DNA of 64,000 bases from an uncultured Gammaproteobacteria bacterium (GCA_964597575.1 CAZQXB010000001.1:778892-842891); one strand, 5' to 3'; positions 7,116 to 57,066 are shown, numbered from the stretch's first letter. A program made the numbers and translations. Notes: generated by a model not told the origin, from the sequence alone.

Positions 7116-9152
7116 TTACAAAAGGGGTTCAGTAAACATCTCGAGCCGACTGTTGGGTGGAAGATCAGGGAATTCCCACATCTCAAGCAGCCGTGGACGG
7201 TCATCAAAAACACGAATCGTTTTTCCATTATCCGTTCGTTTTACCACGACCTCAAGATACCGATCGCCGTATAAATCCGCCAAAAGAACTTGGGTCGTAC
7301 TTTTCGCACCCCCTTCTCCTATCGGAAATGCTCGAAGTTCGACTCCTTCATAGGTAAGGTAAGAAACCATTGGACCACTGCCCTGATTATGACCAACCAC
7401 AATTTCAAGGGCATCATCTCCAGTAATATTTCCAATAGCTAAGCTCGTTGGCATACGTACTTTTGGAAGTGAGACTGTATGCTGAACTGATCCATTCGAT
7501 GCAAACAACCGAAGCACGACAGCTCCCTTCGCATCGGCCATGACCGCGGCTACTTCACCTAAAGATGCACTCGGATTGCGTACAATGGTCAGAGCTTTAA
7601 GTGCCTGCCCTGGAGAAGCCGGCACCGTAAGACGCTTTACCCCAAAGAGTGAAAACACTTCGTACCACGTTGACGCATTAGGGACATACACCACAATTTC
7701 AGGAGCATCGGTTCGAGTAACGAAGCCAACAGCCATCTTCGCGTTCGCCGGAGCCGCAATTCTTTTATCACTCACAAGCGTAAAATCACTGGTGTACAAC
7801 CGCAAACGAGCATTCTTAGAATCGACACGTGAAAGCGAAATGTAGGCTAAGTCACCACGAAAAAAGATGGTTTCAACTTGAGTAGCATCCGCAAAAACTT
7901 CTATTTTTTTCTCCTCTCCTAATGAGGAGTTTTTCGCATGTACTTCAAAAGATGACTGGCCTGTGCGCCAAATAGCGAGAGCTCGTGGAATAAACGCGGT
8001 TCGAGTGAGTGCTGCTTTCTCTACCGCCCCAAAGGCTTGAACTAACCCTCGTCCAAAAAGAGCAGCATACTCATCTTCATTTTTCGGCGTCGTTTTAGAG
8101 ACGCTTTCAAATAACGCGGTATACAATTCTTTTGCTTGCCACTCTGGCTGAACACTTTTCACAAGCGCCAAAATTCCGCTTACGAATGGAGCAGCATACG
8201 ACGTTCCACGTTTGCCTGTGGCATAAGCCTCTACAAAACCAACGGCCGGATCATTCGCAATCGTACTCGCAATATCGACACCCGGGGCAGTTACATCAAT
8301 ACAACTTGAACCGCTATTCGAAAACTGAGCAAACATACGCCCTTCGCGAATCGCACTTACCCCAACCACTGTCTGCGCATTTTGAAGAGCGTCCGCACAG
8401 ACTGGATACTGTGGAGTTGTGTTCAGATCAAACAAGCTATTTCCTGCAGCGGCCACCATTGCTACTCCGTGAAAAGCAGCGTACTCAACCGCTGAACGAA
8501 GTTCGGTATCGTACGCACTTCCTACCAAACTTACATTAATAATGTCAGCTCCATTATCAACGGCATATCGAATCGCCTTTCCAAGAACAAAGCTCTCTGA
8601 AACCCCAGTTTCATCAACAACACGCACGCTCATAAGCTTCACGCGCCAATTGATGCCACGACCATGGATTCCATTGTCTCCGCGAGCGCCAATAATTCCG
8701 GCGACAATAGTTGCGTGACTAATATTTTCATGTTCTTCCGCTGAAAGATTCGTTCGAAGGCGCGGGCGCACATTGGGGTTCCCCCCTACCTCATCTGGCC
8801 CAATTTCTCCATCCCCATTCAAATCATCTGGAATAAAATTCCATCCGTACACATCATCAACATACCCATTTCGGTCATCATCAAGACCATTTTGAGCAAT
8901 CTCCCGACGGTTCGTCCAAATATTCTGAACTAAATCTGGGTGATCAATATCAATACCGTTATCAATAACAGCAACCACAGTATCGTCTGAACCCGTCGTA
9001 ATCTCCCATGCCTCAGGGACACGAAGTAACTCATACGCCCAGCGCAAGGGCTCTGGATCATTTGAAACTTTCGCATGTACTAGCCCTGGAAAACCCAAAA
9101 AAAGAATAAGCAAAAGAAGAAAGGGACGCACCAAAGAAAGACGTCTGCACAT
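7116..9152 (-). CDS. Secreted S8 family serine peptidase (subtilase) with a C-terminal FG-GAP-like repeat region
   Basis: 678 aa with a signal peptide. Catalytic Asp (VIDNGID), His (HATIVAG) and Ser (GTSYAAP) regions are present. The C-terminus carries repeats ending in EIVV. Confidence 0.85.
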   Translation of the reverse strand: MCRRLSLVRPFLLLLILFLGFPGLVHAKVSNDPEPLRWAYELLRVPEAWEITTGSDDTVVAVIDNGIDIDHPDLVQNIWTNRREIAQNGLDDDRNGYVDDVYGWNFIPDDLNGDGEIGPDEVGGNPNVRPRLRTNLSAEEHENISHATIVAGIIGARGDNGIHGRGINWRVKLMSVRVVDETGVSESFVLGKAIRYAVDNGADIINVSLVGSAYDTELRSAVEYAAFHGVAMVAAAGNSLFDLNTTPQYPVCADALQNAQTVVGVSAIREGRMFAQFSNSGSSCIDVTAPGVDIASTIANDPAVGFVEAYATGKRGTSYAAPFVSGILALVKSVQPEWQAKELYTALFESVSKTTPKNEDEYAALFGRGLVQAFGAVEKAALTRTAFIPRALAIWRTGQSSFEVHAKNSSLGEEKKIEVFADATQVETIFFRGDLAYISLSRVDSKNARLRLYTSDFTLVSDKRIAAPANAKMAVGFVTRTDAPEIVVYVPNASTWYEVFSLFGVKRLTVPASPGQALKALTIVRNPSASLGEVAAVMADAKGAVVLRLFASNGSVQHTVSLPKVRMPTSLAIGNITGDDALEIVVGHNQGSGPMVSYLTYEGVELRAFPIGEGGAKSTTQVLLADLYGDRYLEVVVKRTDNGKTIRVFDDRPRLLEMWEFPDLPPNSRLEMFTEPLL

Positions 9153-45012: not shown

Positions 45013-45771
45013 CTAACGATATTTACCACTGACACGGTTCGATAGCATTTGCCCGAGTTCCTGAAGCGAGCGAATAACGGCCTGAAATACTTTTACCCGG
45101 GAATCATCATCGTGGGCCCAAGCAACCGGCATTTGACGAACAGGGATTTTGTGAATATGCGCGATATAAAGAAGCTCGGTATCAAACCCCCAGCGATCAA
45201 TGCGAGCCCGAGGAAAAATGACATCAGCCGCATCCCTATGAAACGCTTTAAACCCGCACGTAAAATCTTTAATTCCTGGAACCAAAAGGTTAGAAAGTTT
45301 CGTAAAACCATGACCCAAAAAGGTACGGATCGATGACTCACTTTTTTGAATTGCGGAACCCTCCAATCGCCGACTCCCGATAACAATACGATCGGTTGGC
45401 GCCAGGACCTCCAAAAGATGATTAAATTCAGTAAGTGGAGTCGCGAGATCGATATCAAAAAATAAAACCCACTCACCTTTTGCATGTTTTGCCCCTTGTC
45501 GGACCGCGTATCCTTTCCCGTGGTTTTCAGAATAGGTGACAAGTTCGAACTGATATCTTTTCTGATACTCACGAAGCATTTTTTCTGTCTCATCTTTTGA
45601 TCCGTCATTCACAAAAAGAATTTCTACCGGCATCGGCACTGATTGAAAAAAAGAAAAAATCTGGTCAATCGTCTTAGGGATACGTCGTGTTTCGTTATAC
45701 ACCGGAATAACAATAGAAAAACGCGGTCGCTCCATATTAATTAAGAGAATATTTCTTGATAAGCTCTTCAC
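45013..45771 (-). CDS. Glycosyltransferase family 2 (polyprenol-phosphate sugar synthase-like)
   Basis: 252 aa with IVIPVYNE, VNDGSKDET and FDIDLATP. Confidence 0.8.
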   Translation of the reverse strand: MKSLSRNILLINMERPRFSIVIPVYNETRRIPKTIDQIFSFFQSVPMPVEILFVNDGSKDETEKMLREYQKRYQFELVTYSENHGKGYAVRQGAKHAKGEWVLFFDIDLATPLTEFNHLLEVLAPTDRIVIGSRRLEGSAIQKSESSIRTFLGHGFTKLSNLLVPGIKDFTCGFKAFHRDAADVIFPRARIDRWGFDTELLYIAHIHKIPVRQMPVAWAHDDDSRVKVFQAVIRSLQELGQMLSNRVSGKYR

Positions 45772-47749
45772 GAGTGGCTCCTAAATCAATACCCGAGGAA
45801 ACTGCGAGATCTAACGTTTTCTTCACTGCTTCTTTTTGACTTGTTACGTCATAGAGCCACAGAAGCCGAATCCAGCTCTCACGAATTTTCGGATCACTCT
45901 CCACGGCCCCCTGAAGCAAGGCCTCGGCTTCGGCAAATTTTCCTAAACGGGTCTTAATCGTAGCAAGCGTAAACGCAAGCTGTTGGCGCTTTGGCGAAAA
46001 AGGGATTGCTTGCTGCATGATCTCTTCAGCCTGAACAAGATATGATTGCTTTCCAGTAAGAACCGCCTGTTGCTCAAAGAGACTCGCCAATTGAATATTA
46101 ATACGCACATCGCGAGGATGAAGTGTGTGATTTTTTTCAAGCTCAAGAGCAGCTTTTACAAGAAACGCTTCAGCAAGCTCTTTCTGTTTTTGCTCGGCCA
46201 GTGGCCCAGCCACCTCGCCCATCACTCTCCCGACATCGTTACGCACATCATCAATATGTGGCGTAGGGATAGCAAGTGTTTCATCGTAGAGGGCAATAGC
46301 AGCTTGTGGGTTTCCATACACCGCCTGAACCGTTTTGAGCGCAGATTGGTTTGCGCGTTTTGGACTTATGTCCGTACTATATAAAAGTAAAAGTACAATG
46401 ATCCCAGCCCCAAGTACTGACGGCCAAGAAATCGCTTTTTTTGCTTCCCCTGTTTTTGCATGCTCACCCATGACGTAACCTGCGAGAAGAGCTAAAAAGA
46501 AGAAAAACGAAAGATACGAAGTCGGATTTTCAAAAACAAACAAGTTATGAACTAGGTGAGCTACAGTAAACCCGACCATCACAATAGCTGTTGCACTATT
46601 TATTCTTCCCGATTTCACGAGCCTGAAAATGGTATACACGGCAGCAGCAAATAACCCTAAATAACTTGCCACCCCAAGAACCCCCTGCGTCGCGAGGGTA
46701 TTCATGATCACGTTATGGGCATTATCGAACCAGGTTTCTCCATACCCAAACCGTAAAAATTCTGGACGATAAAATTCGTTAAAGGCGTAATAATAATTAT
46801 TCGGCCCCCATCCAAACACCGGTTTTGCTTTCCAGGCCTCAAAAGCCACTTTCCAGGCCATTAAACGGGTGCTTGCCGTCCCCTCAGAAAGCTCAGTGTT
46901 CAAAAGCGGGCCAAGCGAAGGGATCTCGCGGATAAACGAAGTCTGTCGAAACGAAACAAGCAAGGCTAAAACAATGACACCGAGAGCAATAACTCCGAGC
47001 GCAGGACGCCGAACTTTCGCATCAAAACGATACTTCCATAGTGTTAAAATGCTTATAATTCCAAGACCACTGAAAACCCCAAGGAGTGTTCCTCGAGTTC
47101 CACCCATGAAAATACCGAGAAATCCAAGAAAGGCACCAACGAGATAGGCGTATCGAACTGACATTTTAGCCACAGTGTCTTCAAAAAACATCCAGACTCC
47201 GAGAGCTAAAATAAACAAACCGTATCCACTTAAATAAATAGGGTTTCCGAGTGTTGCCGAAACACGGGTTGCCCCACGATTCAAAAACCACTCTGGATCA
47301 ATTTTTTGCCGCACCGCAAGAAGCATGACTAAGCTCCCTACCCCCAAAGCGACACGCTCAAGGAATCTCCAATCTTCTTTTTTCCGAATAACCGAGGAAA
47401 GAATAAGTGCGTAGGCGCCATAATGAAGCAAGGTAAAAAGACCAAGCATGCGCTCGTGGTTATTCCACAAACTTTGGTATGGATCTACTCCGAAAATGGT
47501 CGACAAAAGCCAGCTGAACAAAAAAGCGCACAAAACAAACACGAGGGCGATCTTTTTTGGAGCATACGCTTTTACATCTGAAAAGAGTAAGACGCTATAT
47601 ACTCCGATCATCACAAGAACGACCGAACGAAAAAAAAGAATTTTTGGTACGATAAAAGGAAAGATATAATCCGATGGGAACACCATGAGTGGCACGAGAA
47701 ACGCAATGGCTCCAAGACCAAGAATCACCCTCTCAAGAATTCGCTGCAT
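45737..47749 (-). CDS. O-antigen ligase (Wzy_C) family membrane protein with C-terminal TPR repeats; candidate O-oligosaccharyltransferase
   Basis: 670 aa with about 12 TM helices, a Wzy_C-like periplasmic loop (STRLMAWKVAFEAWKAKPVFGWGPNNY) and a C-terminal roughly 220-aa TPR-like helical region. Confidence 0.75.
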   Translation of the reverse strand: MQRILERVILGLGAIAFLVPLMVFPSDYIFPFIVPKILFFRSVVLVMIGVYSVLLFSDVKAYAPKKIALVFVLCAFLFSWLLSTIFGVDPYQSLWNNHERMLGLFTLLHYGAYALILSSVIRKKEDWRFLERVALGVGSLVMLLAVRQKIDPEWFLNRGATRVSATLGNPIYLSGYGLFILALGVWMFFEDTVAKMSVRYAYLVGAFLGFLGIFMGGTRGTLLGVFSGLGIISILTLWKYRFDAKVRRPALGVIALGVIVLALLVSFRQTSFIREIPSLGPLLNTELSEGTASTRLMAWKVAFEAWKAKPVFGWGPNNYYYAFNEFYRPEFLRFGYGETWFDNAHNVIMNTLATQGVLGVASYLGLFAAAVYTIFRLVKSGRINSATAIVMVGFTVAHLVHNLFVFENPTSYLSFFFFLALLAGYVMGEHAKTGEAKKAISWPSVLGAGIIVLLLLYSTDISPKRANQSALKTVQAVYGNPQAAIALYDETLAIPTPHIDDVRNDVGRVMGEVAGPLAEQKQKELAEAFLVKAALELEKNHTLHPRDVRINIQLASLFEQQAVLTGKQSYLVQAEEIMQQAIPFSPKRQQLAFTLATIKTRLGKFAEAEALLQGAVESDPKIRESWIRLLWLYDVTSQKEAVKKTLDLAVSSGIDLGATREELIKKYSLN

Positions 47750-48543: not shown

Positions 48544-48572
48544 ACTATACCATGAGGGAAAGAACCCGTCAA
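48544..48572 (-). promoter_or_regulatory. Near-consensus sigma70 promoter (TTGACG-17-TATAGT) giving a near-leaderless start for the long minus-strand operon
   Basis: On the minus strand, TTGACG (48572-48567), a 17-nt spacer and TATAGT (48549-48544). Only 11 nt separate the -10 from the ATG at 48532. Confidence 0.55.
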
Positions 48573-48589: not shown

Positions 48590-48628
48590 CCCAAAAACAA
48601 AACTCCCCCGCCGAAGCGAGGGAGAATT
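48590..48628 (-). terminator. Strong rho-independent terminator after the giant surface-protein gene
   Basis: The minus strand reads ctccctcgc-ttcg-gcgggggag followed by ttttgttttt. The stem is GC-rich with a UUCG-type loop. Confidence 0.7.
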
Positions 48629-48648: not shown

Positions 48649-51600
48649 TTACCCTTGACGTGAAAGTGAAGTACCAACGACATCATATGAATCTGATGCA
48701 ACGTATGCTTCAGAGTTCACTGAACCGTTAACTGGAGTGTAGTAGTATTCAACTACGCCATTTGCCCAGTTATCTTCGAATTCGTCGGCTGAAGCGTCGT
48801 AGCCAGTAGCGCCGTCAAGTTTCGGTGAAACTGAAACGGTGATCTGACCAACACCACTCGCTTTACCATTGAACATAGCGGTAGTGTCAGCAACCAAGAT
48901 GAGGGTGCGTGAGCTACCAACTGGAATGGTGAAGTTATCGAGAAGGCTGTTCGTGTCATTTGATTGACCGAATACAACGTTCAAAGTGTTACCTGCTGAA
49001 GCATTGACACCGTTTGTGATGCCGATACCACCAGCGAGGCTAGCGGTGCTCGTTGCAGCGATCTGTGTTCCAAGACCACCTGACGAGTTCGCTTCCCAGA
49101 GTTGCCATGTTCCGATCGTACCAGTTGCAGTTCCGTTTGCAGTAAGACCACTTGCAGCCACATTAATGGTTGTAGTAGAAATACGCATTTCACGGTCACC
49201 ACTGTTGGTGATGCTGAACTGGAAGATCTTAGCTTGTGATGACTGTTCCAAAGTTGAACCAATGTTCACCGAAGCGATCACTGGAGCAGTGTTGTGGAAC
49301 AAGTAGAACGATGAAGTAGCAAAACGAACTGAAGTCGTATTTGCACCTGACGTTGTGCTGTCGATCTGAGCTAATCCAAGCTCCCCGCCTGACGCTGCAA
49401 CGATGCGAACATCGTTGGTGTCATTGTTGCTACGAATAGCAAACGCGTTGATGCTTGCAACATCCATGGTACCTGAACCGTTAATTTCACCCTTCAAAAC
49501 AATGTACTTAGTTTCGTCTGCACCAACTGAGTAGTTAAGCCCAGTGAAGCGAACGTAACCTGCACTTGATCCTGGAGTGTAGCTTGCTGAACCGATAGGA
49601 GTTGACATGTTGTTTGAATCGTAGAGATACAACGTGCCAAAGTTTCCTGCTGAAGTATCAGAAGCTAATGTGTCGTCTACAACCTGGAAGGTAAGACGTT
49701 CAATATTAACAGTTTCGTTTTCAGCCTTGATTGACCACTTACCAAGCTGCATCGGAGCAGCACTTGGAGTGCGGATCGATGAGATGGTCGTGCTGTCATT
49801 TGATGCAGCGATAACAACGTTAGCAGCACCAAAGGTAATCGTCTGGCCGGTAACAGCAGTAGCTGTGTCACTGTTGCTGGTCGATTGACCAACGTAGGTA
49901 ACAGCGAAGCTTACTGAAGTCGTACCAGATGAAGTTGATTCAGTGTCTGACCATACTTTGATCACCTTCTGCTCATTCGCAGCGAGTGCGAGTGAGAAGC
50001 TGAAGCTGTTCGATGAAGTAGCAACAGTGCTGAGGGTTGAACCCAAAGCGTTGTTGTTTGCATCACGAAGTTCAAGGTTCTTCAAGTATGTAGGAGCGCT
50101 GAATGCGCCACCGCCATTAAATGAAACGGTTGCGTTTGTAATGCTTACAGCTTCTGCATCACCTGCACGCACAACGAAGCGACCCACTTCGATCTTCGAA
50201 CCTAGGGAAGCTGTGCGGTTACCAAGTGCTGTGTCTTTCGACAAAGTCAAGCTGGTAGTGTCTGCAGTAAGCGTGTTACCTGCAACAACTGACGTAGCGA
50301 GATCGCTGAAGTCATTTGTTGAGAGACGTTTCGCATACAAGTTACCGAACGATACCGTATAGGTAGCAGTTCCAGTAGCTGTTGTTGGGATGTTCCCGAT
50401 AACTTCAACAACTTTCGTTTCGCCTGAAGCAATATTGATATATTGCGAAAGGTTGTACTGAGTTGCGCTGTTATAGAGGCTTGAACCAGCTGAAACGGTA
50501 AGAACCGTAACACCATCAACCACTACGCGAACGTTGCCGGTCAAACCAGCTGCGCCAGCGAATGATGAGGTAGCAACACGAAGTGCTGCTTTGCGGATTT
50601 CAAGATCTTCACCTACGGCCTTGAGGTCGTAGCGAGCAAGAACGCGATCGGTAGCACCAGCTGAAACGCGAGTTGATGGTGAATCATTGCGTTTTGAAAC
50701 TGAAGCTGAACCTGACTTCATCTTGAACCAACCGTCTGATGACGATACAGCCAAGAATGATGCTGGCAACACGTAAAAACCTGTTGAAGCATCTTGAAGC
50801 AAGATGTCGTAATCGTTCTGAACTTGCGCGCGGAAGTAGTTACCTGAACCATCATTGATCTTACCACGGAGTGTAACTACGCGGTTTGAACCTTCTGGAA
50901 TCGTGTAACCATTTGCGATGTTGAATGAAACGTAGCGGTCAGTAATTTGAGTAGCAGTACCAAGAACGGTATTGTCTGGAGCGCGGAGCTCAAGATCAGT
51001 TACGTCACGGTCCTGAAGGCTACCCTGGAAGTACACGCGAATATTCTTCAAGTGTACATCGTTATTACCACTCGTTTCGCTGATGCGGATCTTCAAAAGA
51101 TCTTTTACTTCAGCAATTTCAACGTTCCCTGCGGTTCCGCTTGATGGTTCAGTACCCAACCCACCAACTGACTGACCAGTTAAGGTTACAGTTGAGAGTG
51201 CGTCATCGCCATCAGTTAAACCAAAGGTGTTCCCAATAATTGGAAATGCGCCTGAAACAGTACCGTTTGAGATAATGTCAGAAGCAAGAGCAATATTAGC
51301 ACCAACAGTACCACCAGTTGCGTCGCTTGCTAAGTTCATAGCAACCGTCAAAACTTTTGATGAACCTGCTGGAATTGTTACTGCGTCAACACCGAAGTTG
51401 ATTGTTACTTTATCTTCCGAGTTGAAAGATGACATAACATCACCAAGGCGCATACCATCAACCCAAGCGCTTACGCCTGAGATCTTTGAGTTTGCAACCA
51501 AGCCAGTTTTGCGAACAGTAATACCTGAAACGCGAACTGGAGCGCTGTTTGCCATGAGGTTGATTTTCAAAACCTCATTATACGCAGTGCTGTTTGAGAG

Positions 51601-52434
51601 TGTCGTACCTACTGGGGTATTTGCACTCAAACCAACTGAAAGGGCACCACCGGTTGGGGTAGGACCTGGAGTTGGGTTAGGTGTTGGGTTAGGGTTCACT
51701 GAACCTGAACCAGCACCTTGTGTTGGATCCATGCTGAGGTCAGCACGCATCACGTTTGAACCAGTACCAAACGAGTTGAATGTTGATTGAGGAACGGTCG
51801 CAACATATCCTGAAAGGAATGAAGGAACGCCACCATCAACCATGCGGAGCATTCCGCCTTCAACCATGTATACAGCTGATGATGAAGCGAGTTTCACAAG
51901 CATACCATTTACTGGCATACCAGTGCTGTCACCTGCAACAACGCTGAAGTTCGCCCAGAACGCTGGATGTACATCGTACACTTTGCGGTTCCAGTTGCTG
52001 CCAGCAAGCATTGCTGCTGCGGCTTCGCTTGCGATACGGCGAATTTTGTTTCCAGATTCTACTACGTAAACGGAGTTAGAAGCTTGGAGTTTGACCAAAG
52101 TACCAGGACGGAAGTTTACGCCGTATGGTGCTGCGGTTGGCATGGTGTAGTTATCGAAGCATGATGGATCAATTGTCACCACACCTGAGTAATCTGCGAA
52201 CCATGATTTGTAGACATTTGCATTTGGGAAAAACAACGGTTGTAAATTCTGGTTAAGAATGTAAACCGCTGGATCTCCAGCGACCTTGAACTGACTGCCA
52301 ACCTGAAGGGCTGGGCATTCAACAGCTTGCGCTGCCAAAGGTGCAAGGGCCGCAACTCCCATGCTCCACAAAATAGTGGTAACAACCACTGACATTGTGA
52401 AGCCTTTTTTTACAGCTTTTAAAGCACTATTCAT
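48649..52434 (-). CDS. Giant secreted repeat-rich surface protein (candidate S-layer / surface glycoprotein)
   Basis: The preferred start at 52434 (MNSALKAVKKGFTMSVVV...AQA) gives a classic signal peptide. The ORF extends to 52572. It has three roughly 50-aa N-terminal repeats (SxxVYxVExG), a PT-rich linker NPNPTPNPTPGPTPTGG, then about 1000 aa that are Thr/Ser/Gly/Asn/Val-rich, presumably beta-rich, with almost no Cys. Confidence 0.75.
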   Translation of the reverse strand: MNSALKAVKKGFTMSVVVTTILWSMGVAALAPLAAQAVECPALQVGSQFKVAGDPAVYILNQNLQPLFFPNANVYKSWFADYSGVVTIDPSCFDNYTMPTAAPYGVNFRPGTLVKLQASNSVYVVESGNKIRRIASEAAAAMLAGSNWNRKVYDVHPAFWANFSVVAGDSTGMPVNGMLVKLASSSAVYMVEGGMLRMVDGGVPSFLSGYVATVPQSTFNSFGTGSNVMRADLSMDPTQGAGSGSVNPNPTPNPTPGPTPTGGALSVGLSANTPVGTTLSNSTAYNEVLKINLMANSAPVRVSGITVRKTGLVANSKISGVSAWVDGMRLGDVMSSFNSEDKVTINFGVDAVTIPAGSSKVLTVAMNLASDATGGTVGANIALASDIISNGTVSGAFPIIGNTFGLTDGDDALSTVTLTGQSVGGLGTEPSSGTAGNVEIAEVKDLLKIRISETSGNNDVHLKNIRVYFQGSLQDRDVTDLELRAPDNTVLGTATQITDRYVSFNIANGYTIPEGSNRVVTLRGKINDGSGNYFRAQVQNDYDILLQDASTGFYVLPASFLAVSSSDGWFKMKSGSASVSKRNDSPSTRVSAGATDRVLARYDLKAVGEDLEIRKAALRVATSSFAGAAGLTGNVRVVVDGVTVLTVSAGSSLYNSATQYNLSQYINIASGETKVVEVIGNIPTTATGTATYTVSFGNLYAKRLSTNDFSDLATSVVAGNTLTADTTSLTLSKDTALGNRTASLGSKIEVGRFVVRAGDAEAVSITNATVSFNGGGAFSAPTYLKNLELRDANNNALGSTLSTVATSSNSFSFSLALAANEQKVIKVWSDTESTSSGTTSVSFAVTYVGQSTSNSDTATAVTGQTITFGAANVVIAASNDSTTISSIRTPSAAPMQLGKWSIKAENETVNIERLTFQVVDDTLASDTSAGNFGTLYLYDSNNMSTPIGSASYTPGSSAGYVRFTGLNYSVGADETKYIVLKGEINGSGTMDVASINAFAIRSNNDTNDVRIVAASGGELGLAQIDSTTSGANTTSVRFATSSFYLFHNTAPVIASVNIGSTLEQSSQAKIFQFSITNSGDREMRISTTTINVAASGLTANGTATGTIGTWQLWEANSSGGLGTQIAATSTASLAGGIGITNGVNASAGNTLNVVFGQSNDTNSLLDNFTIPVGSSRTLILVADTTAMFNGKASGVGQITVSVSPKLDGATGYDASADEFEDNWANGVVEYYYTPVNGSVNSEAYVASDSYDVVGTSLSRQG

Positions 52435-52694
52435 AGGAATAATACGTGCGGCGACGAGCGCGCCTTCTGACAAAGCAGAAAGGTCCCATCGACACAATTT
52501 TATAATATACCCCCATGTGTCACGACTCGTTGCCGAGCCTCGACTTTTTGGTGTCACATGCCTCGCATTCAATCGCAGGCCCGCGGTGAATGAAAGGGTT
52601 TACCAAGTCAGATAATGACCTGGACCATACTGTATGGCATTCGGACGCCTGACCGAGGTCAAGCATACGTAGCCATACAATATGTAGTATTTTC

Positions 52695-54020
52695 TTACCG
52701 CACCACCGGTTGTGGTGACGGGGAAGCCTGTGTTGAGGAACTCGTTGCCGCAGAACCAGTTGGTGCGGGGGCAGTACTTACCGTACCAGTTGCGGTTGAA
52801 GCCGGTGGAACTGGTTGAGGTAACGACGTACTGTACACTTTGAGCGTTATTTCCGGAGTGACTGATGTTTCAATTTCTTTTTTCAAATTGAGTGCAGTTT
52901 GTAGTTTTTCAAGTGCTCCTCGCAAATTTTCTTGACCAAGCAGCACTTTTGCATCAGCCACAGCCTGAGCCGCAGTCTCCACCTTCTCTTGAACTGTTCT
53001 TTCTGGCGCGACTACTGTTGGTATAGTACCTGTTGCTGTAGAAGAAGTTGTTACAACAGCCATAGGAATAGTACTCGTTTCTGTTGACGCACCAGCAGTA
53101 CTTGAAACAGTAGAAGAAGCTGAACTTGGAGTAGACGCCTCAACAACAGGCAGGGTACCAGTAGCCGTAGAGGAAGCTACTGATTGAAGGGCGTTAAATG
53201 TTGATTCTAAACTAACAAGAGCTTTTTCAAGCGTAAGATTTACCGCTTGAGAGGATCCTTCTGAAGGAGTAGGGCCATTTGCAATAATGTGAGCGGCGGT
53301 AACCACAGCATTCACATTTGTTTCTGCAACTAAATTTGCGACAACAGCAACCTCTGTTTTTACGGCCATCGAAAGATCTGTTGATTTTATTTCGGTCGGA
53401 ATATTTGTAACAGAATTTGATAAATCGGTAGCGATCTGAGAAGTTTTTTCTGACACCACACTGAGAAGAGCAGAAGGATCACCTGAAGAAGTTTTTACTT
53501 TTTGAATCTCTTCATTTGTTGATTTAATATTTTCTTTCAAAGAAAGCACGACGGTCTTTGCCTGCTCCTGCTTTTTAACAACATCACTTGGAGAAGTTTG
53601 AATTTTTTTCAACTCCCCTGCTCGCTTCTGTGCATGATTCAAAAGAACTACCACTTTTTCCCCGTTACTGCCAGCAAGAAGCAGTTCCTTTTTTTCATTG
53701 ACTTTTTTAACACTATATAAGAAGTCTCCTGGTAAACTTGATTCTGCGGCTGAAACTGACACACCCCATCCATATATTGCTACACCGAAAATAAGAACGT
53801 AGACGAATGAAGCGCGGGCAATGGTTGCGATTGGACGAGGTAATAAAAACGAAAGAAAGTTTGAGAAATTTTTTGCTCGTGATGGAGATGCTTCCCGACG
53901 AGGGGCTCCCGGAACCTCATTCATCAGGCGCGCCGAAACACGCGACTTCCATTCAGCGCGAGGAGCGAGGGTCGGCAGAGCCGAAAGAGACTTCAATTGT
54001 GACCGAAGGTCACGATTCAT
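52695..54020 (-). CDS. Anti-sigma factor-like membrane protein with DUF5667-type domain and Ser/Thr/Ala-rich C-terminus
   Basis: 441 aa, overlapping the sigma gene stop. The cytoplasmic N-terminus is followed by a single TM (FVYVLIFGVAIYGWGV) and the block GDFLYSVKKVNEKKE. The C-terminal tail is low-complexity and S/T/A/P-rich. Confidence 0.65.
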   Translation of the reverse strand: MNRDLRSQLKSLSALPTLAPRAEWKSRVSARLMNEVPGAPRREASPSRAKNFSNFLSFLLPRPIATIARASFVYVLIFGVAIYGWGVSVSAAESSLPGDFLYSVKKVNEKKELLLAGSNGEKVVVLLNHAQKRAGELKKIQTSPSDVVKKQEQAKTVVLSLKENIKSTNEEIQKVKTSSGDPSALLSVVSEKTSQIATDLSNSVTNIPTEIKSTDLSMAVKTEVAVVANLVAETNVNAVVTAAHIIANGPTPSEGSSQAVNLTLEKALVSLESTFNALQSVASSTATGTLPVVEASTPSSASSTVSSTAGASTETSTIPMAVVTTSSTATGTIPTVVAPERTVQEKVETAAQAVADAKVLLGQENLRGALEKLQTALNLKKEIETSVTPEITLKVYSTSLPQPVPPASTATGTVSTAPAPTGSAATSSSTQASPSPQPVVR

Positions 54021-54588
54021 ACAAAGGATTCCGAGGTTGGCGTTTAATAACTTCTTCTAATTTTTTCGTGGCGCGATGCAGAGTAACACGGACCGCAGTT
54101 TGCTTCTTTTGCAAGGCTTCGGCAATTTCTTTGACTGACATCTCTTCCACGTAACGAAGAAAAATGACATCTTGATATTCTTGCTTCAACTGCTTTACTG
54201 CCTGAAGAAGCATTTCAGCATCTCCAGATTTTGCAGCCGCTTCGAATGCACTTGGTCGTGAGTCTGGAGTTTCCATAACCACATCAACCGACTCTGTTGG
54301 ATGTTTGGCTCGGCTACGATAGAAATCAATAATCGTACTCCGAGCAATGGTATACATGAATGCGCGGAAATGACGAACTTCTTCACGTTCAGAATTTGTA
54401 AGATACTGCCACGCTTTGGCAAACGTTTCAGCGGCTACATCTTCTGCTTCTTCGCGATGAGCAATTTTTAAAGCCACAAACCGGTAGATAGCCGAGGCAT
54501 ACTTTTGATACAGTATACTAAAGGCATCGCGGTCATGGTGGTGGCGAATGCGAAAAAGAAGAGTCAATTCATTCTGCACACTATCCAT
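54010..54588 (-). CDS. ECF-type sigma-70 family RNA polymerase sigma factor
   Basis: The ATG at 54588 (MDSVQNELTLL) is preferred. The ORF extends to 54693 through an unlikely hydrophobic N-terminus. Region 2 (YRFVALKIAHREEAEDVAAETFAKAW) and a region 4 HTH (MSVKEIAEALQKKQTAVRVTLHRATKKL) are present. Confidence 0.8.
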   Translation of the reverse strand: MDSVQNELTLLFRIRHHHDRDAFSILYQKYASAIYRFVALKIAHREEAEDVAAETFAKAWQYLTNSEREEVRHFRAFMYTIARSTIIDFYRSRAKHPTESVDVVMETPDSRPSAFEAAAKSGDAEMLLQAVKQLKQEYQDVIFLRYVEEMSVKEIAEALQKKQTAVRVTLHRATKKLEEVIKRQPRNPLYES

Positions 54589-54751
54589 ACAAGAAGACGT
54601 GAGAAAAGGAAAAACGTTACACCCAGCACTGTCACAACCAAAAAAGATATCTACGAGTATAGCCAAAAAAGCGGAAAAAAACAAGGCCCACACCCCTTAA
54701 ATACGGTTTTTTGATTACCTTAGTGATACCATTTTGTAAAAAGGATTTTAT

Positions 54752-54800: not shown

Positions 54801-54829
54801 TTGACAAAACCCTAAAATTATGCTATATA
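54801..54829 (+). promoter_or_regulatory. Near-consensus sigma70 promoter with extended -10 (TTGACA-17-TGcTATATA)
   Basis: TTGACA at 54801-54806, a 17-nt spacer, TG at 54821-54822 and TATATA at 54824-54829. A second palindrome TTGTATACAA at 54843-54852 lies just downstream of the -10. Confidence 0.55.
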
Positions 54830-54882: not shown

Positions 54883-55212
54883 ATGTCATCCCCTGCTCTT
54901 ACGAGCGCTACCCCCGAAAAGCATCCCGAGGTTGTCCGCGTCTCTATTTCAGAGGCTGCTCGCCTCTTTGGGGTAAACGCTCAAACGATCCGCCGCGCAA
55001 TTAAACAAAATGAGATCACCTATATCGTTGTTGCCGGCCGCTATAAGCTCAACTTTGAAAGTTTGGTGAAATGGTCTCAACAAAAAACAACCATTAAAAA
55101 CAAGCTCAATGAACGCGGGATTGGCCAGTATATTGATCAATGGAAGATTTCAAACACTCTCTACTCCCCAAGCCCAAAATTAGTCACCCCTGAAGAAGAA
55201 ACGCATAGCTAA
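54883..55212 (+). CDS. Helix-turn-helix DNA-binding protein (excisionase/MerR-like HTH_17 type)
   Basis: 109 aa with the HTH ISEAARLFGVNAQTIRRAIKQNEI near the N-terminus. Confidence 0.65.
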   Translation: MSSPALTSATPEKHPEVVRVSISEAARLFGVNAQTIRRAIKQNEITYIVVAGRYKLNFESLVKWSQQKTTIKNKLNERGIGQYIDQWKISNTLYSPSPKLVTPEEETHS

Positions 55213-55254: not shown

Positions 55255-57066
55255 TTATTCCGGAAGGACTGCGGTTCCCGCTGCACGACCTTGAAGATCG
55301 TGTGGAAGCGCCGTAGACAAGCCCTTTGTTATTTGCTCCCGCAGCATACGATTTGTAATCGGATCAAAGGCCTCACCTTGGACAGAATCAACCAGCGTAA
55401 CAATCGTCCCCGCCATATCAGATGTTGGGGTAAACACAATTTCAAAAGCAACTTCAACTGTTTGAAACGGCTGAAGAGTACGACCATACCAGGTTATTTT
55501 TTTCTTCGCTTCATCAAAAACAGGAGTGTCGCCGCGTGTCACACTCGTTTGGCCAGTCAGCATAACCGCCCGCGGAAGGCTCACACTCAGTATTGGTTTT
55601 TCGGCCAACCCTCGCCCATTTTTCAAGGTAATAATCACCCAGTATTTCGTTGTCGCATTAACGCGTGGAGGTAGTGCCCCGCGACCCAACTGATCACCCT
55701 CAGAAGTGAAGTAACGAACCTCTGCATCAAGCGCAATACGGGTTCCAAGCATAAGTTGTGGAAGCTCAGCCTCACCCCTTAATTCACTTACTGTATCCCC
55801 GAGCCTTGCTTGCCCAACGACGCGCACCCGAACCACCTCGCTTGTCGCATCAGTACGTACAGGAAGACTCATGTTTTGTACAACCTCTTCACCTTTTCGA
55901 AGCGACACATCGCCAAGCGGTACGCGCACCCCACCGGAAATTCGAGTACTTTTTGTAAGCGTTCGAAGAAGTGCCGCTGTGTCTATCACCGCCTCATCAA
56001 ACAACACATCGACTGCCGAAGCACGGACAGCACCATCTTCAGTATTTTTTATGGTAACCGTAAGAGGAATCTTTTCCCCAGGCGCAGTGCTTGTTATTGC
56101 CCCATTCCACTGACCACGAATTTCAATGGCGGCCTGACTCACCACCCCCGAAGACGCAATCGGCAGCTGTGGCAAAGAAACACCATCAGAAATAATCTCA
56201 GGCGTAAACTGAATTCGATAAGCGCGATCGGAGGTGCGAAATTGCGTCGACATCCACCCCTCAAGTTCTGCCACCTGCCCTGGCAATAGCGACTCTATGC
56301 GCCAACCAAGAGGGGTAATGGTTCCAAGGTCGGCACGAAGATCGTGAAACGTAACTCCTCGCGGAGGCGCGAGTGGCACAAAAACAGTATACCCATTCAC
56401 CCCTCCTTCATGCCGAAGCGAAAACCGAAATGAACCCTGCCCATTCCGTACAACCTGCTCCGGCAAACTGAGATGTCCTCCAATAACACTGTCTCTTCCT
56501 AAGATAGTTGCGTGATTCGCTCCTAAAAACAGGTGAGTATTTTCTTCATAGATATGAACCGCAAAAACCGCTTCTTCACCTAACTGGCTGATGTATACCC
56601 CATCGACGACCAAAGAAAAGGTTGTGGTATTCGTAAAATCGAGCGGAAAGTGAACCGTGCCTGTTGCATATTCTTTTTCAGAAACAGTAATATGAGTAGG
56701 AGAAAAACCTTTCGGCCACTCGACCCTCGCTTCTGCGTGAAGATTTTCGATATCACTCGGGCGAATGATATCTGCTCGAAGGGTAAGCGTGTCTCCGGTT
56801 TTTACCCTTCCTTCTGGGAGATACATAACCACAATGGCGCGCGGGCTTACAGGTGGTGTGTATAAATAGTATCCAAGGGCCGCTGCAGCAAATAAAAGGG
56901 TGCTTGTAAGAAGTGCAAGATCAAAAAAAAACAATTTTCTGGCATGCCGAAATCGCAGAGCATATCGGCGCAGATAGTAATGATGAAGAAACGTAAAAGG
57001 AGATGCCATAATAAATACAATCCTCTCTAGTATAGAGATAGAAGAGAGATGTTTCAATATCCCCAA
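55255..57066 (-). CDS. Large hypothetical membrane-anchored protein with repeated beta-rich (Ig-like?) segments
   Basis: 603 aa with an N-terminal TM helix (FFFDLALLTSTLLFAAAALGYYLY) and no recognisable catalytic motifs. Confidence 0.5.
   Translation of the reverse strand: MGILKHLSSISILERIVFIMASPFTFLHHYYLRRYALRFRHARKLFFFDLALLTSTLLFAAAALGYYLYTPPVSPRAIVVMYLPEGRVKTGDTLTLRADIIRPSDIENLHAEARVEWPKGFSPTHITVSEKEYATGTVHFPLDFTNTTTFSLVVDGVYISQLGEEAVFAVHIYEENTHLFLGANHATILGRDSVIGGHLSLPEQVVRNGQGSFRFSLRHEGGVNGYTVFVPLAPPRGVTFHDLRADLGTITPLGWRIESLLPGQVAELEGWMSTQFRTSDRAYRIQFTPEIISDGVSLPQLPIASSGVVSQAAIEIRGQWNGAITSTAPGEKIPLTVTIKNTEDGAVRASAVDVLFDEAVIDTAALLRTLTKSTRISGGVRVPLGDVSLRKGEEVVQNMSLPVRTDATSEVVRVRVVGQARLGDTVSELRGEAELPQLMLGTRIALDAEVRYFTSEGDQLGRGALPPRVNATTKYWVIITLKNGRGLAEKPILSVSLPRAVMLTGQTSVTRGDTPVFDEAKKKITWYGRTLQPFQTVEVAFEIVFTPTSDMAGTIVTLVDSVQGEAFDPITNRMLREQITKGLSTALPHDLQGRAAGTAVLPE

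Follow-up and report, generated by a model that had tools for sequence, protein, structure and literature searches.

How is the gene of a giant surface protein controlled when it lies directly behind a sigma/anti-sigma pair, in a group of bacteria whose gene regulation and envelope biogenesis are almost entirely uncharacterised? Most CPR/Patescibacteria are uncultivated and live as episymbionts, making contact with their hosts through the cell surface, and the locus described here belongs to an ultra-small member of this group with a Magasanikbacteria-like genome. It lies within a window (the whole stretch of DNA analysed) of 64,000 nucleotides. On the minus strand, an ECF sigma factor gene is followed by an overlapping DUF5667 anti-sigma gene, a 260-nt gap, the giant secreted protein gene, and a strong terminator (Table 1). 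The open reading frames and the gap agree with the coordinates given in the original prediction for this DNA; only the length of the giant protein had to be corrected, from 1262 to 1261 aa counted from the ATG at 52434. The same gene order is present in more than 20 Patescibacteria genomes at the species level (loci L001–L005, L007–L015, L017–L022, L025, L026, and L092), with sigma identity falling to about 38%. This order is not a product of chance, and the three genes form a conserved functional neighbourhood, in line with the earlier prediction.

Table 1. Features of the sigma/anti-sigma/giant protein locus and its downstream neighbour, in window coordinates.
Feature	Position	Strand	Evidence
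Sigma-70-type promoter TTGTTT-N17-TATACT (TGnTATACT in relatives), putative function	54656–54684	-	conserved block
ECF (BldN-type) promoter TGTAAC-N16-CGTC, predicted autoregulatory	54596–54621	-	motif and geometry
ECF sigma factor, BldN-like, 192 aa	54010–54588	-	Pfam, NCBIfam, PDB relatives
Single-pass anti-sigma factor, RsbN/DUF5667 type, 441 aa	52695–54020	-	DUF5667, hydropathy, BLASTP, profile-profile comparison
Structured intercistronic leader RNA, whole element	52435–52694	-	identity, folding energy, no Rfam match
5' domain: long-range stem AUUGUAUGGC / GCCAUACAGU around covarying hairpin (52664–52647)	52629–52681	-	RNAalifold
Core motif: P1 (52560–52551 / 52523–52514), junction CAAAAAGUCGA (52550–52540), P2 with GCAA loop (52539–52524)	52514–52560	-	folding, covariance model
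Hairpin P3, after AU-rich stretch (52509–52495) and before GCGC box	52463–52483	-	RNAalifold
Giant secreted surface protein of 1261 aa, with signal peptide, N-terminal domain resembling EccB repeats, Pro/Thr linker, and Ig-like domains in tandem	48649–52434	-	
Intrinsic terminator closing the transcription unit, 9 pairs (7 G-C) and T-run	48603–48624	-	
Wzy_C and TPR membrane protein, candidate glycan ligase/O-oligosaccharyltransferase	45737–47749	-	Pfam Wzy_C, E 5e-20

The sigma factor carries the Pfam domains Sigma70_r2 and Sigma70_r4_2 (PF04542 plus PF08281/PF04545) and belongs to the ECF (group IV) sigma-70 proteins, scoring 90.6 bits with TIGR02937 against a cut-off of 42.9 bits. Its top NCBIfam family is TIGR02952, the BldN family, at 123 bits; since the curated cut-off is 206 bits, the protein is classified by its sequence as BldN-like rather than as a BldN equivalog. 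The closest solved structure is chain A of 6DXO, which is the sigma factor in the RsbN-BldN complex. In BldN-family subgroup 1, an N-terminal pro-sequence is removed by proteolysis (PMC7826278). Such a pro-sequence is absent here: in this protein of 192 residues, region 2 begins as early as residue 26, and promoter geometry in 22 loci fixes the start codon.

Directly downstream, with an 11-nt overlap that covers the sigma stop codon, lies the gene of a DUF5667 protein that is built like the anti-sigma factors of the RsbN type. Short N-terminal helices in the cytoplasm are followed by one transmembrane segment (a hydropathy peak at about residues 64–85) and an extracytoplasmic domain, where Pfam places DUF5667 at residues 95–200. 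Both the single transmembrane segment and the S/T/A-rich tail noted previously are present, and the tail consists of 16% T, 14% S, and 14% A. The protein aligns with the RsbN orthologue of locus L089 over the LPGDxLYxxK region (BLASTP, E 4e-8). When the part from the N-terminus to the start of DUF5667 was compared with actinobacterial RsbN-like proteins, hhalign returned a probability of 97.6% (E 2.7e-12), a score that owes part to the transmembrane segment and the LPGD motif, with an alignment collinear from the N-terminal helix through that motif. The sigma/DUF5667 pairing is also found in actinobacterial loci, including an RsbN orthologue matching 6dxo_D. As far as these homologies indicate, the pair is related to BldN-RsbN of Streptomyces, and binding and inhibition of the sigma factor by its partner are predicted.

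Two promoter-like elements precede the sigma gene. The distal, sigma-70-type block is kept in L001, L003, L006, L007, and L008 although the proteins are only about 50% identical. The proximal motif, TGTAAC-N16-CGTC, ends exactly 7 nt ahead of the sigma ATG and is the sole site with at most one mismatch in the 64-kb window. Related loci contain one exact site each, and the motif-N7-start codon geometry is exact in 22 of 35 CPR loci, among which the sequence of the spacer varies. At actinobacterial BldN loci, CGTAAC-N16-CGTT stands ahead of the DUF5667 gene; GTAAC (-35) and CGT (-10) motifs are conserved at the expected places in CPR and actinobacterial loci alike. The 7-nt distance between the conserved promoter and the start codon suggests that TGTAAC-N16-CGTC is recognized by this sigma factor, i.e., autoregulation, and that the sigma mRNA is leaderless or nearly so.

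The giant gene had been proposed to be monocistronic and, tentatively, to be transcribed from a sigma-dependent promoter within the 260-nt leader. Neither part of this proposal was upheld. TGTAAC-N16-CGTC occurs only ahead of the sigma gene, and no relaxed version was found in 24 leaders; a regulon motif located elsewhere and missing from 52435–52694 is literally the outcome that the original prediction had named as contradicting it. Within the window's clade, no BldN-type, sigma-70, or extended -10 promoter was detected in the leaders or in the last 250–400 nt of the anti-sigma genes, and no true terminator was found in the leaders. The strong terminator ascribed to the giant gene was recovered, with a T-run behind its hairpin, and an equivalent one lies downstream of all 19 giant genes examined. 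Given that the leader lacks the promoter motif as well as any detectable sigma-70 promoter or terminator, the giant gene is most likely co-transcribed with the sigma and anti-sigma genes, and control via co-transcription is most likely the link that remains between the sigma factor and the giant protein. In the leaders of L010–L015 and L019, a long hairpin stands at the beginning and a tract containing U residues comes after it, where partial termination could occur.

The placement of an abundant surface protein on one promoter with its regulators is unusual and counts against this explanation; proteins of the S-layer type normally require very strong promoters of their own. The giant gene might instead be transcribed from its own promoter, of a housekeeping or unrecognised type, situated in the 3' end of the anti-sigma gene or in the leader. 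It would then encode a constitutive major envelope protein, and the sigma pair would be a conserved neighbour that senses the surface layer, with a regulon consisting of itself only or lying elsewhere. Perfect sigma-70 promoters ahead of the downstream surface-protein gene in the distant lineages L028, L031, and L033 show that independent transcription occurs in relatives; there, and in L091, a consensus TTGACA-N15/16-TATAAT is located directly upstream of the equivalent leader, and many leaders have AU-rich -10-like stretches after helix P1. In the window and in L001, L003, and L007–L009, however, no sigma-70 match of at least 10/12 and no extended -10 is present in the leader or the 300–400 nt upstream of it, the sole 10/12 matches being located in L011 and L012, within the anti-sigma genes. 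A promoter would not fit between the anti-sigma stop codon of L021 and the RNA motif, which begins 18 nt further on. Moreover, it is evident from covariation that transcription covers the sequence as far as the AU-rich stretch, and no terminator separates the anti-sigma and giant genes. We consider this alternative less likely than co-transcription.

From comparative folding, the leader is a strongly covarying, conserved folded RNA rather than a promoter. Its DNA has about 80% column identity to loci whose sigma proteins share only 54%, and its minimum free energy of -103.3 kcal/mol corresponds to z = -6.1 on the gene strand versus z = -3.96 on the opposite strand. In the 5' domain, RNAalifold analysis of seven leaders placed an 11-bp stem in 7/7, with G-U changes, around an inner hairpin in which most pairs show compensatory changes. 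The core is composed of helix P1, a conserved single-stranded AAA(A/G)GUCGA segment, and hairpin P2, and lies about 100–145 nt from the giant start codon. Between it and the start codon sits P3, where RNAalifold pairs with compensatory changes occur in columns 232–279. The 'TGACAC direct repeat' of the original prediction can be understood in this context: the two GTGACA(C) copies are real, but not as a functional direct repeat; as CATGTGACAC / GTGACACATG, they make up the two sides of an imperfect inverted repeat, which forms P1. Similarly, the supposed AT-rich -10 element belongs to the covarying RNA structure.

The core architecture folds in 16 of 24 leaders, compared with 4.8% of shuffled flanks. 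In a 20-sequence core alignment, 90.9% of cells were paired versus 48.9% after shuffling and 33–45% after sliding; the RNA alignments were hand-registered from predicted helices, which inflates such percentages, and the two controls mitigate this effect but do not remove it. A covariance model of the core scored 47.7 bits at the leader and, with filters off, matched nowhere else in the window; it gave one match per locus, always in this leader position. It had no match in 53 non-CPR loci, and the motif is absent from L090 and L091, giant homologues without an adjacent sigma gene (two cases only). Searches of Rfam (release 15) returned no match to the leader, with thresholds of E<=10 for the window and E<=1 for four related loci; Rfam 15 appears to contain neither the P1-AAARGUCGA-P2 motif nor the UGUAUGGC/GCCAUACA domain.

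The high structural stability of the element and its beginning 10–20 nt past the anti-sigma stop codon would also suit an independent small RNA gene or a structured 3' end of the sigma/anti-sigma transcript. Such an interpretation is highly improbable: the element has neither a promoter nor a terminator of its own, its conservation and covarying helices reach the giant start codon, and its position relative to the giant ATG is constrained.

Co-transcription would be compatible with the leader acting as a sensor, whether as a riboswitch or as an RNA that binds a protein. The AAARGUCGA junction would bind a metabolite (e.g., an envelope or glycan precursor) or a protein (a NusG-like antiterminator or the surface protein's partner) and thereby gate elongation or translation of the giant gene. 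An invariant single-stranded segment of 8–9 nt within fully covarying helices, resembling the conserved junction of an aptamer, is typical of ligand- or protein-binding RNAs; the fixed distance to the start codon, with more conserved helices downstream, and the single copy per locus point in the same direction. EAR RNA, LoaP leaders, and the RfaH ops site provide precedents for RNA or DNA elements in the leaders of long surface-structure operons. Nevertheless, no expression platform was identified in the leader: no alternative terminator/antiterminator or start-codon-sequestering pairing was found, and Shine-Dalgarno sequences are mostly missing from the genes of this genome, which leaves no obvious platform. 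Searches also yielded no Rfam family and no candidate ligand or binding protein, and we consider a sensor function unlikely. With some caution, and at odds clearly below even, the leader and its accessory domains might represent a new Patescibacteria-specific class of cis-acting regulatory RNA, riboswitch-like or protein-recruiting, which gates the main surface protein inside an ECF sigma operon. If so, this class would join a membrane signal, received by the anti-sigma factor, and an RNA-level signal on one transcript.

The explanation that we favour, with a probability of roughly 0.55, is a self-amplifying three-gene unit (BldN-type sigma, RsbN-type anti-sigma, leader RNA, giant gene, and terminator) in which the giant gene is expressed by read-through and the leader uncouples the outputs. 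Transcription would start from the two promoters upstream of the sigma gene, one sigma-70-type and one ECF-type; the latter would be read by the sigma factor itself, giving a transcript that begins at or next to its start codon. On sensing an extracytoplasmic cue via DUF5667, the anti-sigma factor would free the sigma factor, which would amplify the operon and, through read-through, raise giant gene expression too. Most probably, the leader RNA would uncouple the output of the giant gene from that of the two regulators, and the likeliest route would be a processing and 5'-stabilising site. Alternative roles would be to keep transcription of the long untranslated stretch from ending prematurely, or to bind a protein or ligand, so that processing/stabilisation, antitermination, and sensing are the candidate functions.

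The presumed target has the features of a secreted multi-domain surface protein, as expected earlier. Its N-terminus is signal-peptide-like, and its 91 homologues are all unnamed, with SLH or PG_binding_1 domains in a few. The N-terminal domain was modelled with a pLDDT of 84.9 and has EccB1/EccB5 as top PDB matches, the similarity to EccB periplasmic repeats reaching a probability of 0.9–0.98 but a TM-score of only about 0.2. Residues 265–720 (pLDDT 90.4, all-beta) match antigen I/II C123, PrgB Ig-like domains, and integrin legs; tandem Ig-like domains of this kind are typical of adhesin stalks. In these models, the EccB-like and Ig-like domains fit a wall-associated surface protein. A Wzy_C gene of the O-antigen-ligase/O-oligosaccharyltransferase type follows the giant gene almost everywhere (conserved in L001, L007–L009, L090, and L092), even without a sigma gene in L090; in the window it belongs to a separate downstream unit behind a promoter-like site at 48572–48544.

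The locus therefore offers a candidate major surface protein family with a candidate glycosylation partner, a BldN/RsbN-type switch of a kind earlier described as specific to Streptomyces development, whose predicted promoter is open to in vitro assay, and a well-supported structured RNA without an Rfam match that can be probed biochemically without culturing. It also indicates an old association of this sigma family with secreted surface-coat proteins.

Several known systems can be compared with this arrangement. The S-layer slpA genes of Lactobacillus and Thermus have long structured 5' untranslated leaders and, as here, the stably folded leader precedes the gene of a large secreted envelope protein. 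Unlike the leader described here, they follow dedicated strong promoters outside sigma/anti-sigma operons and share no motif with it; the giant protein is itself only a candidate S-layer protein. E. coli papBA and B. subtilis cggR-gapA are operons of regulator and structural genes with differential mRNA stability. They resemble the present locus in having upstream regulators, an abundant downstream structural gene, a structured intercistronic region, and a single terminator after the structural gene, and are proposed as a working analogy for the leader; they have no sequence relationship to it, and a role in cleavage or stability would be assigned here by analogy.

The closest relative is the Streptomyces sigma-BldN/RsbN system, classified as ECF121 (Casas-Pastor et al. 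2021, PMC7826278), with the RsbN-BldN structure 6DXO and rsbN as a known direct BldN target (PMC6101532). RsbN homologues were stated to occur only in Streptomyces (PMC6101532); contrary to this statement, DUF5667 partners adjoin BldN-like sigmas across Actinobacteria and CPR, which is evidence for a much wider distribution of RsbN-type anti-sigmas than the literature gives. The CPR sigma factor differs from BldN in falling below the equivalog cut-off and in lacking the pro-sequence, and the anti-sigma factor differs from RsbN in having a long S/T/A-rich tail and no region that aligns to helix alpha-1. The predicted promoter stands ahead of the sigma gene with leaderless geometry, not ahead of the anti-sigma gene; the presumed target is reached within the operon via a structured RNA, in contrast to the dispersed regulon promoters of Streptomyces, and the CPR host has no known developmental cycle. 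What the two systems share is a sigma factor closest to BldN in NCBIfam and PDB, an anti-sigma factor encoded immediately downstream with a short cytoplasmic N-terminus, one transmembrane segment, and an extracytoplasmic DUF5667 domain starting with LPGDxLYxxKR, a promoter motif of the GTAAC-N16-CGT type, and secreted cell-surface proteins tied to the module: chaplins and rodlins in Streptomyces, the giant protein here.

The original prediction's gene arrangement on the minus strand between 48649 and 54588 was confirmed: the open reading frames, their domains, the gap between the anti-sigma and giant genes and the terminator are as described. The anti-sigma protein carries a single hydrophobic segment at about residues 64-85 and a tail rich in T/S/A. 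The giant protein as deposited (public record P0087) has 1302 aa, compared with 1261 aa when counted from the ATG at 52434; its annotated start lies about 41 codons upstream of that position and falls inside the core motif of the leader RNA (region 52435-52557). The conserved signal peptide starts at the 52434 ATG, which makes an error in the deposited start probable.

Coordinates of genes, candidate promoters and leader RNA elements of the sigma/anti-sigma/giant gene locus
Feature	Position	Strand	Remarks
Second conserved block, TTGTTT-N17-TATACT	54684-54656	minus	70-100 nt upstream; TGnTATACT in relatives
Putative ECF promoter, TGTAAC-N16-CGTC	54621-54596	minus	followed by exactly 7 nt, then the sigma ATG
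ECF sigma gene	54588-54010	minus	192 aa; Sigma70_r2 and Sigma70_r4_2
Anti-sigma gene	54020-52695	minus	441 aa; overlaps sigma gene by 11 nt; DUF5667 at residues 95-200
Intercistronic gap (leader)	52694-52435	minus	260 nt
5' domain of leader	52681-52629	minus	covarying hairpin within stem AUUGUAUGGC/GCCAUACAGU; window's subclade
Helix P1	52560-52551 / 52523-52514	minus	arms are the two TGACAC copies
Single-stranded junction CAAAAAGUCGA	52550-52540	minus	enclosed by P1
Hairpin P2	52539-52524	minus	GCAA loop; enclosed by P1
Hairpin P3	52483-52463	minus	covarying; window's subclade
Giant gene	ATG at 52434	minus	1261 aa; N-terminus signal-peptide-like
Strong intrinsic terminator	48624-48603	minus	after the giant gene

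An identical layout was found on all contigs with sigma homologues of 46-57% identity: a 574-622-aa protein and an HTH_17 gene, then, divergently, the sigma gene, the DUF5667 gene, a gap of 100-380 nt, a giant gene (1180-1390 aa) and a Wzy_C gene, sometimes with a small or TPR protein just before the latter. A profile scan for the sigma factor, with one genome per species, returned about 25 loci from Patescibacteria (CPR), most of which keep this order; they are labelled Magasanik-, Falkow-, Buchanan-, Uhr-, Parcu- and Saccharibacteria and Nealsonbacteria. The reverse search, starting with homologues of the giant protein, re-found the full module in locus L092 and also returned L090 and L091, whose giant homologues have no neighbouring sigma gene, so the adjacency of the sigma module and the giant gene is strongly conserved but not obligatory. 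The window's 603-aa protein (55255-57066, minus strand), with faint CLIPPER/DUF7927 similarity only, is a member of the same conserved neighbourhood as the sigma module; its counterparts (574-622 aa) adjoin the HTH_17 gene in L001, L003, L007, L009 and L092. Loci L010, L015, L016, L017 and L023, which are of the Patescibacteria type and have a sigma factor 37-47% identical to that of the window, are found in TPA metagenome-assembled genomes titled 'uncultured Gammaproteobacteria bacterium', and these taxonomic labels look wrong. The window itself comes from a CPR bacterium, given that relatives of its sigma protein are named Magasanikbacteria/Patescibacteria.

Judged by sequence, the sigma/anti-sigma pair is BldN/RsbN-like. 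The top NCBIfam model for the window's sigma factor is the BldN family (123 bits, under the 206-bit cut-off), its closest solved structure is the sigma chain (chain A) of the RsbN-BldN complex 6DXO, and the other matches of the genome scan are actinobacterial BldN-like sigma factors. The genes downstream of these encode single-pass DUF5667 proteins, whose DUF5667 opens with the same LPGDxLYxxKR motif as in the CPR anti-sigma factors. The DUF5667 protein of L089, a Streptomycetaceae locus, matches the crystallised RsbN fragment 6dxo_D (E 1e-7) and aligns with the window's anti-sigma factor (E 4e-8). In profile-profile comparison, the N-termini of the CPR and actinobacterial anti-sigma factors match, through the transmembrane segment to the start of DUF5667, with 97.6% probability (E 2.7e-12), and the two align collinearly, starting at the first CPR helix. 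BldN belongs to group ECF121 (PMC7826278), and its targets in Streptomyces are rsbN and the surface-sheath genes for chaplins and rodlins (PMC6101532). RsbN homologues were said to be confined to Streptomyces (PMC6101532); contrary to that statement, our comparison shows that the DUF5667 partner is widespread. Searching the literature on DUF5667, ECF sigma factors in CPR and S-layer genes of CPR turned up nothing specific.

The -35 and -10 blocks of the TGTAAC-N16-CGTC motif upstream of the sigma gene are kept across relatives, and the sequence of the spacer is variable. The exact motif occurs once in the window, where 0.27 occurrences are expected by chance, and once per related locus; no other site with up to one mismatch is present in the 64 kb. 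The motif is separated by 7 nt from the sigma start codon in 22 of 35 CPR loci, and in six more distant ones it lies between the sigma and anti-sigma genes. Nearly all actinobacterial loci have CGTAAC-N16-CGTT in the latter place, in agreement with the published identification of rsbN as a direct target of BldN. We infer that TGTAAC-N16-CGTC is an autoregulatory ECF promoter, which would give a leaderless or near-leaderless sigma mRNA. The second conserved block looks, from its sequence, like a housekeeping promoter. An initial position-weight matrix was dropped, as it took in the ATG context and its secondary matches were meaningless. In L016 and L017, TGTAAC-N17-CGTC lies within the sigma coding region (at about 7267-7293), not upstream; it could have arisen by chance or be an internal promoter. 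The HTH_17 (MerR/excisionase-type) gene (54883-55212, plus strand), divergent from the sigma gene and present in all related loci, has a sigma-70-like promoter (TTGACA at about 54801-54806, N17, TATATA) that lies between two TGTATAC...GTGTA(T)ACA palindromes (54850-54831 and 54772-54753), of which relatives have perfect versions (TGTATACACTAGTGTATACA). The palindromes probably serve as an autoregulatory operator and might add a layer of control over the sigma operon.

A sigma-dependent promoter had been proposed within the leader itself. Exact, one-mismatch and several relaxed patterns revealed no ECF promoter in the leader of the window or in 24 leaders with 250 nt upstream, and GTAAC-N15-18-CGT occupied a conserved position in none of the 24 leaders, each searched with the last 250 nt of the anti-sigma gene. 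Within the window's clade, neither the leader nor the 300-400 nt upstream contains a sigma-70 site matching at least 10/12 positions or an extended -10; consensus sigma-70 promoters precede the equivalent region in the distant L028, L031 and L033, and also in L091. The combination of AAAGGTCGA with the AU-rich stretch was dropped as a promoter candidate because the distance between the two varies from 11 to 35 nt and what lies between them forms covarying helices. In the terminator scan, 19 of 19 giant genes were followed, at a distance of no more than about 80 nt, by a strong G+C-rich terminator; the leaders gave only weak hairpins with poor T-tracts, which belong to the RNA fold. Since neither a terminator nor a recognisable promoter separates the anti-sigma gene from the giant gene, the default would be to read the two as co-transcribed. 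The proposed link from the sigma factor to the giant gene is thus plausible via co-transcription, but the route through a leader promoter finds no motif to support it. We assign a probability of roughly 0.55 to the overall operon model, in which the sigma factor would autoregulate from TGTAAC-N16-CGTC upstream of its own start codon and would be linked to the giant gene through co-transcription, not through a promoter within the leader.

The leader is a conserved structured RNA without a match in Rfam 15, and it is the most novel element of the locus. Its 260 nt show about 80% column identity to loci whose sigma factor is only 54% identical, and its indels between loci are not multiples of three. 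The predicted fold has an energy of -103.3 kcal/mol; the z-score is -6.1 for the gene strand and -3.96 for the opposite strand. What had been described as a TGACAC direct repeat is in fact the two arms of helix P1. Almost every locus has the core motif, P1-[AAA(A/G)GUCGA]-P2, about 100-145 nt before the start codon of the giant gene; between loci, its helices differ in length and are unrelated in sequence. When the junction was constrained to be unpaired, 16 of 24 leaders folded the core architecture, compared with 4.8% of 4800 dinucleotide-shuffled controls. Plain MAFFT failed to keep the helices of the motif in register, and N-padded, hand-registered alignments were used instead. In the 8-sequence core alignment, 93.6% of cells pair (both-side changes in 14 of 14 pairs), and in the 20-sequence alignment 90.9%, versus 48.9% after shuffling and 33-45% with the partners slid, although the percentages for the two alignments are somewhat inflated because the register was set by hand from predicted helices. 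Double-change cells in the larger alignment number 122, against 42 after shuffling.

The covariance model built from the 8 sequences gave one match per CPR locus, always in the leader between the anti-sigma and giant genes, and recovered the motif in the independently reached L092; it is too narrow, finding L008, L010 and L022 at E of about 0.1 only and L017 and L025 weakly. It had no match in 53 actinobacterial and other loci and, with filters off, none elsewhere in the window. Having only an AAGGUCG-loop-CGAC hairpin without P1, the leaders of Saccharibacteria type (L028, L031, L033 and L034) were rejected as motif members. Leaders of the window's subclade contain, as further elements, two more hairpins, an AU-rich stretch and a GCGC box. 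In the subclade of L010-L015 and L019, the first 60-80 nt past the anti-sigma stop contain a long hairpin, with CUCUC...GAGAG in its arms, that stands in for the UGUAUGGC/GCCAUACA 5' domain, and after it a AAUUUGUUU-like tract that is conserved; the two may function as a weak attenuator or as a structural equivalent of that domain.

All 91 homologues of the giant protein (about 1200-1500 aa) are unnamed; SLH or PG_binding_1 domains occur in a few. A model of its N-terminal 240 residues (pLDDT >95 over residues 40-240) resembles the repeated periplasmic modules of EccB1/EccB5, with a Foldseek probability of 0.9-0.98 and a low global TM-score. Residues 265-720 (pLDDT 90.4) are predicted to form tandem beta-sandwich Ig-like domains, similar to antigen I/II, PrgB and integrin stalks. 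These models fit a wall-associated surface protein, which could be an S-layer subunit or an adhesin. A Wzy_C gene follows the giant gene in most loci with annotated downstream genes, and because it does so even without a sigma module, as in L090, this points to the giant protein and Wzy_C as a functional pair independent of the sigma factor. Such a neighbour is compatible with glycosylation of the giant protein. In the window, both the terminator and a separate promoter-like site (48572-48544) lie between the giant gene and the Wzy_C gene (45737-47749). Wzy_C genes are often fused to or adjoin TPR proteins (L090 8878-13244; L092 8831-11516; window 45737-47749), and two are present in L090.

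Of the window's 47 genes, only 7 have a Shine-Dalgarno-like sequence in front, so the giant gene is not special in having none. An extended -10 (TGGTATAGT, TGGTATACT) ends about 10-12 nt before the ATG of several genes (e.g. 48544-48572; upstream of 7064), which points to leaderless or very short-leader mRNAs as a common feature of this genome. Inspection by eye of the window and L001 leaders revealed no convincing pseudoknot partner for the junction and no convincing pairing to the start-codon region, and no expression platform could be defined in the leader. The place of the leader RNA in the apparent operon, with two regulators before it and a probably abundant structural protein after it, suggests that it would act as a processing and 5'-stabilising element, as in papBA or cggR-gapA. 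It could also shield the long untranslated stretch from premature termination. A site that binds a ligand or a protein would be just as typical a reading of an invariant junction held by covarying helices.
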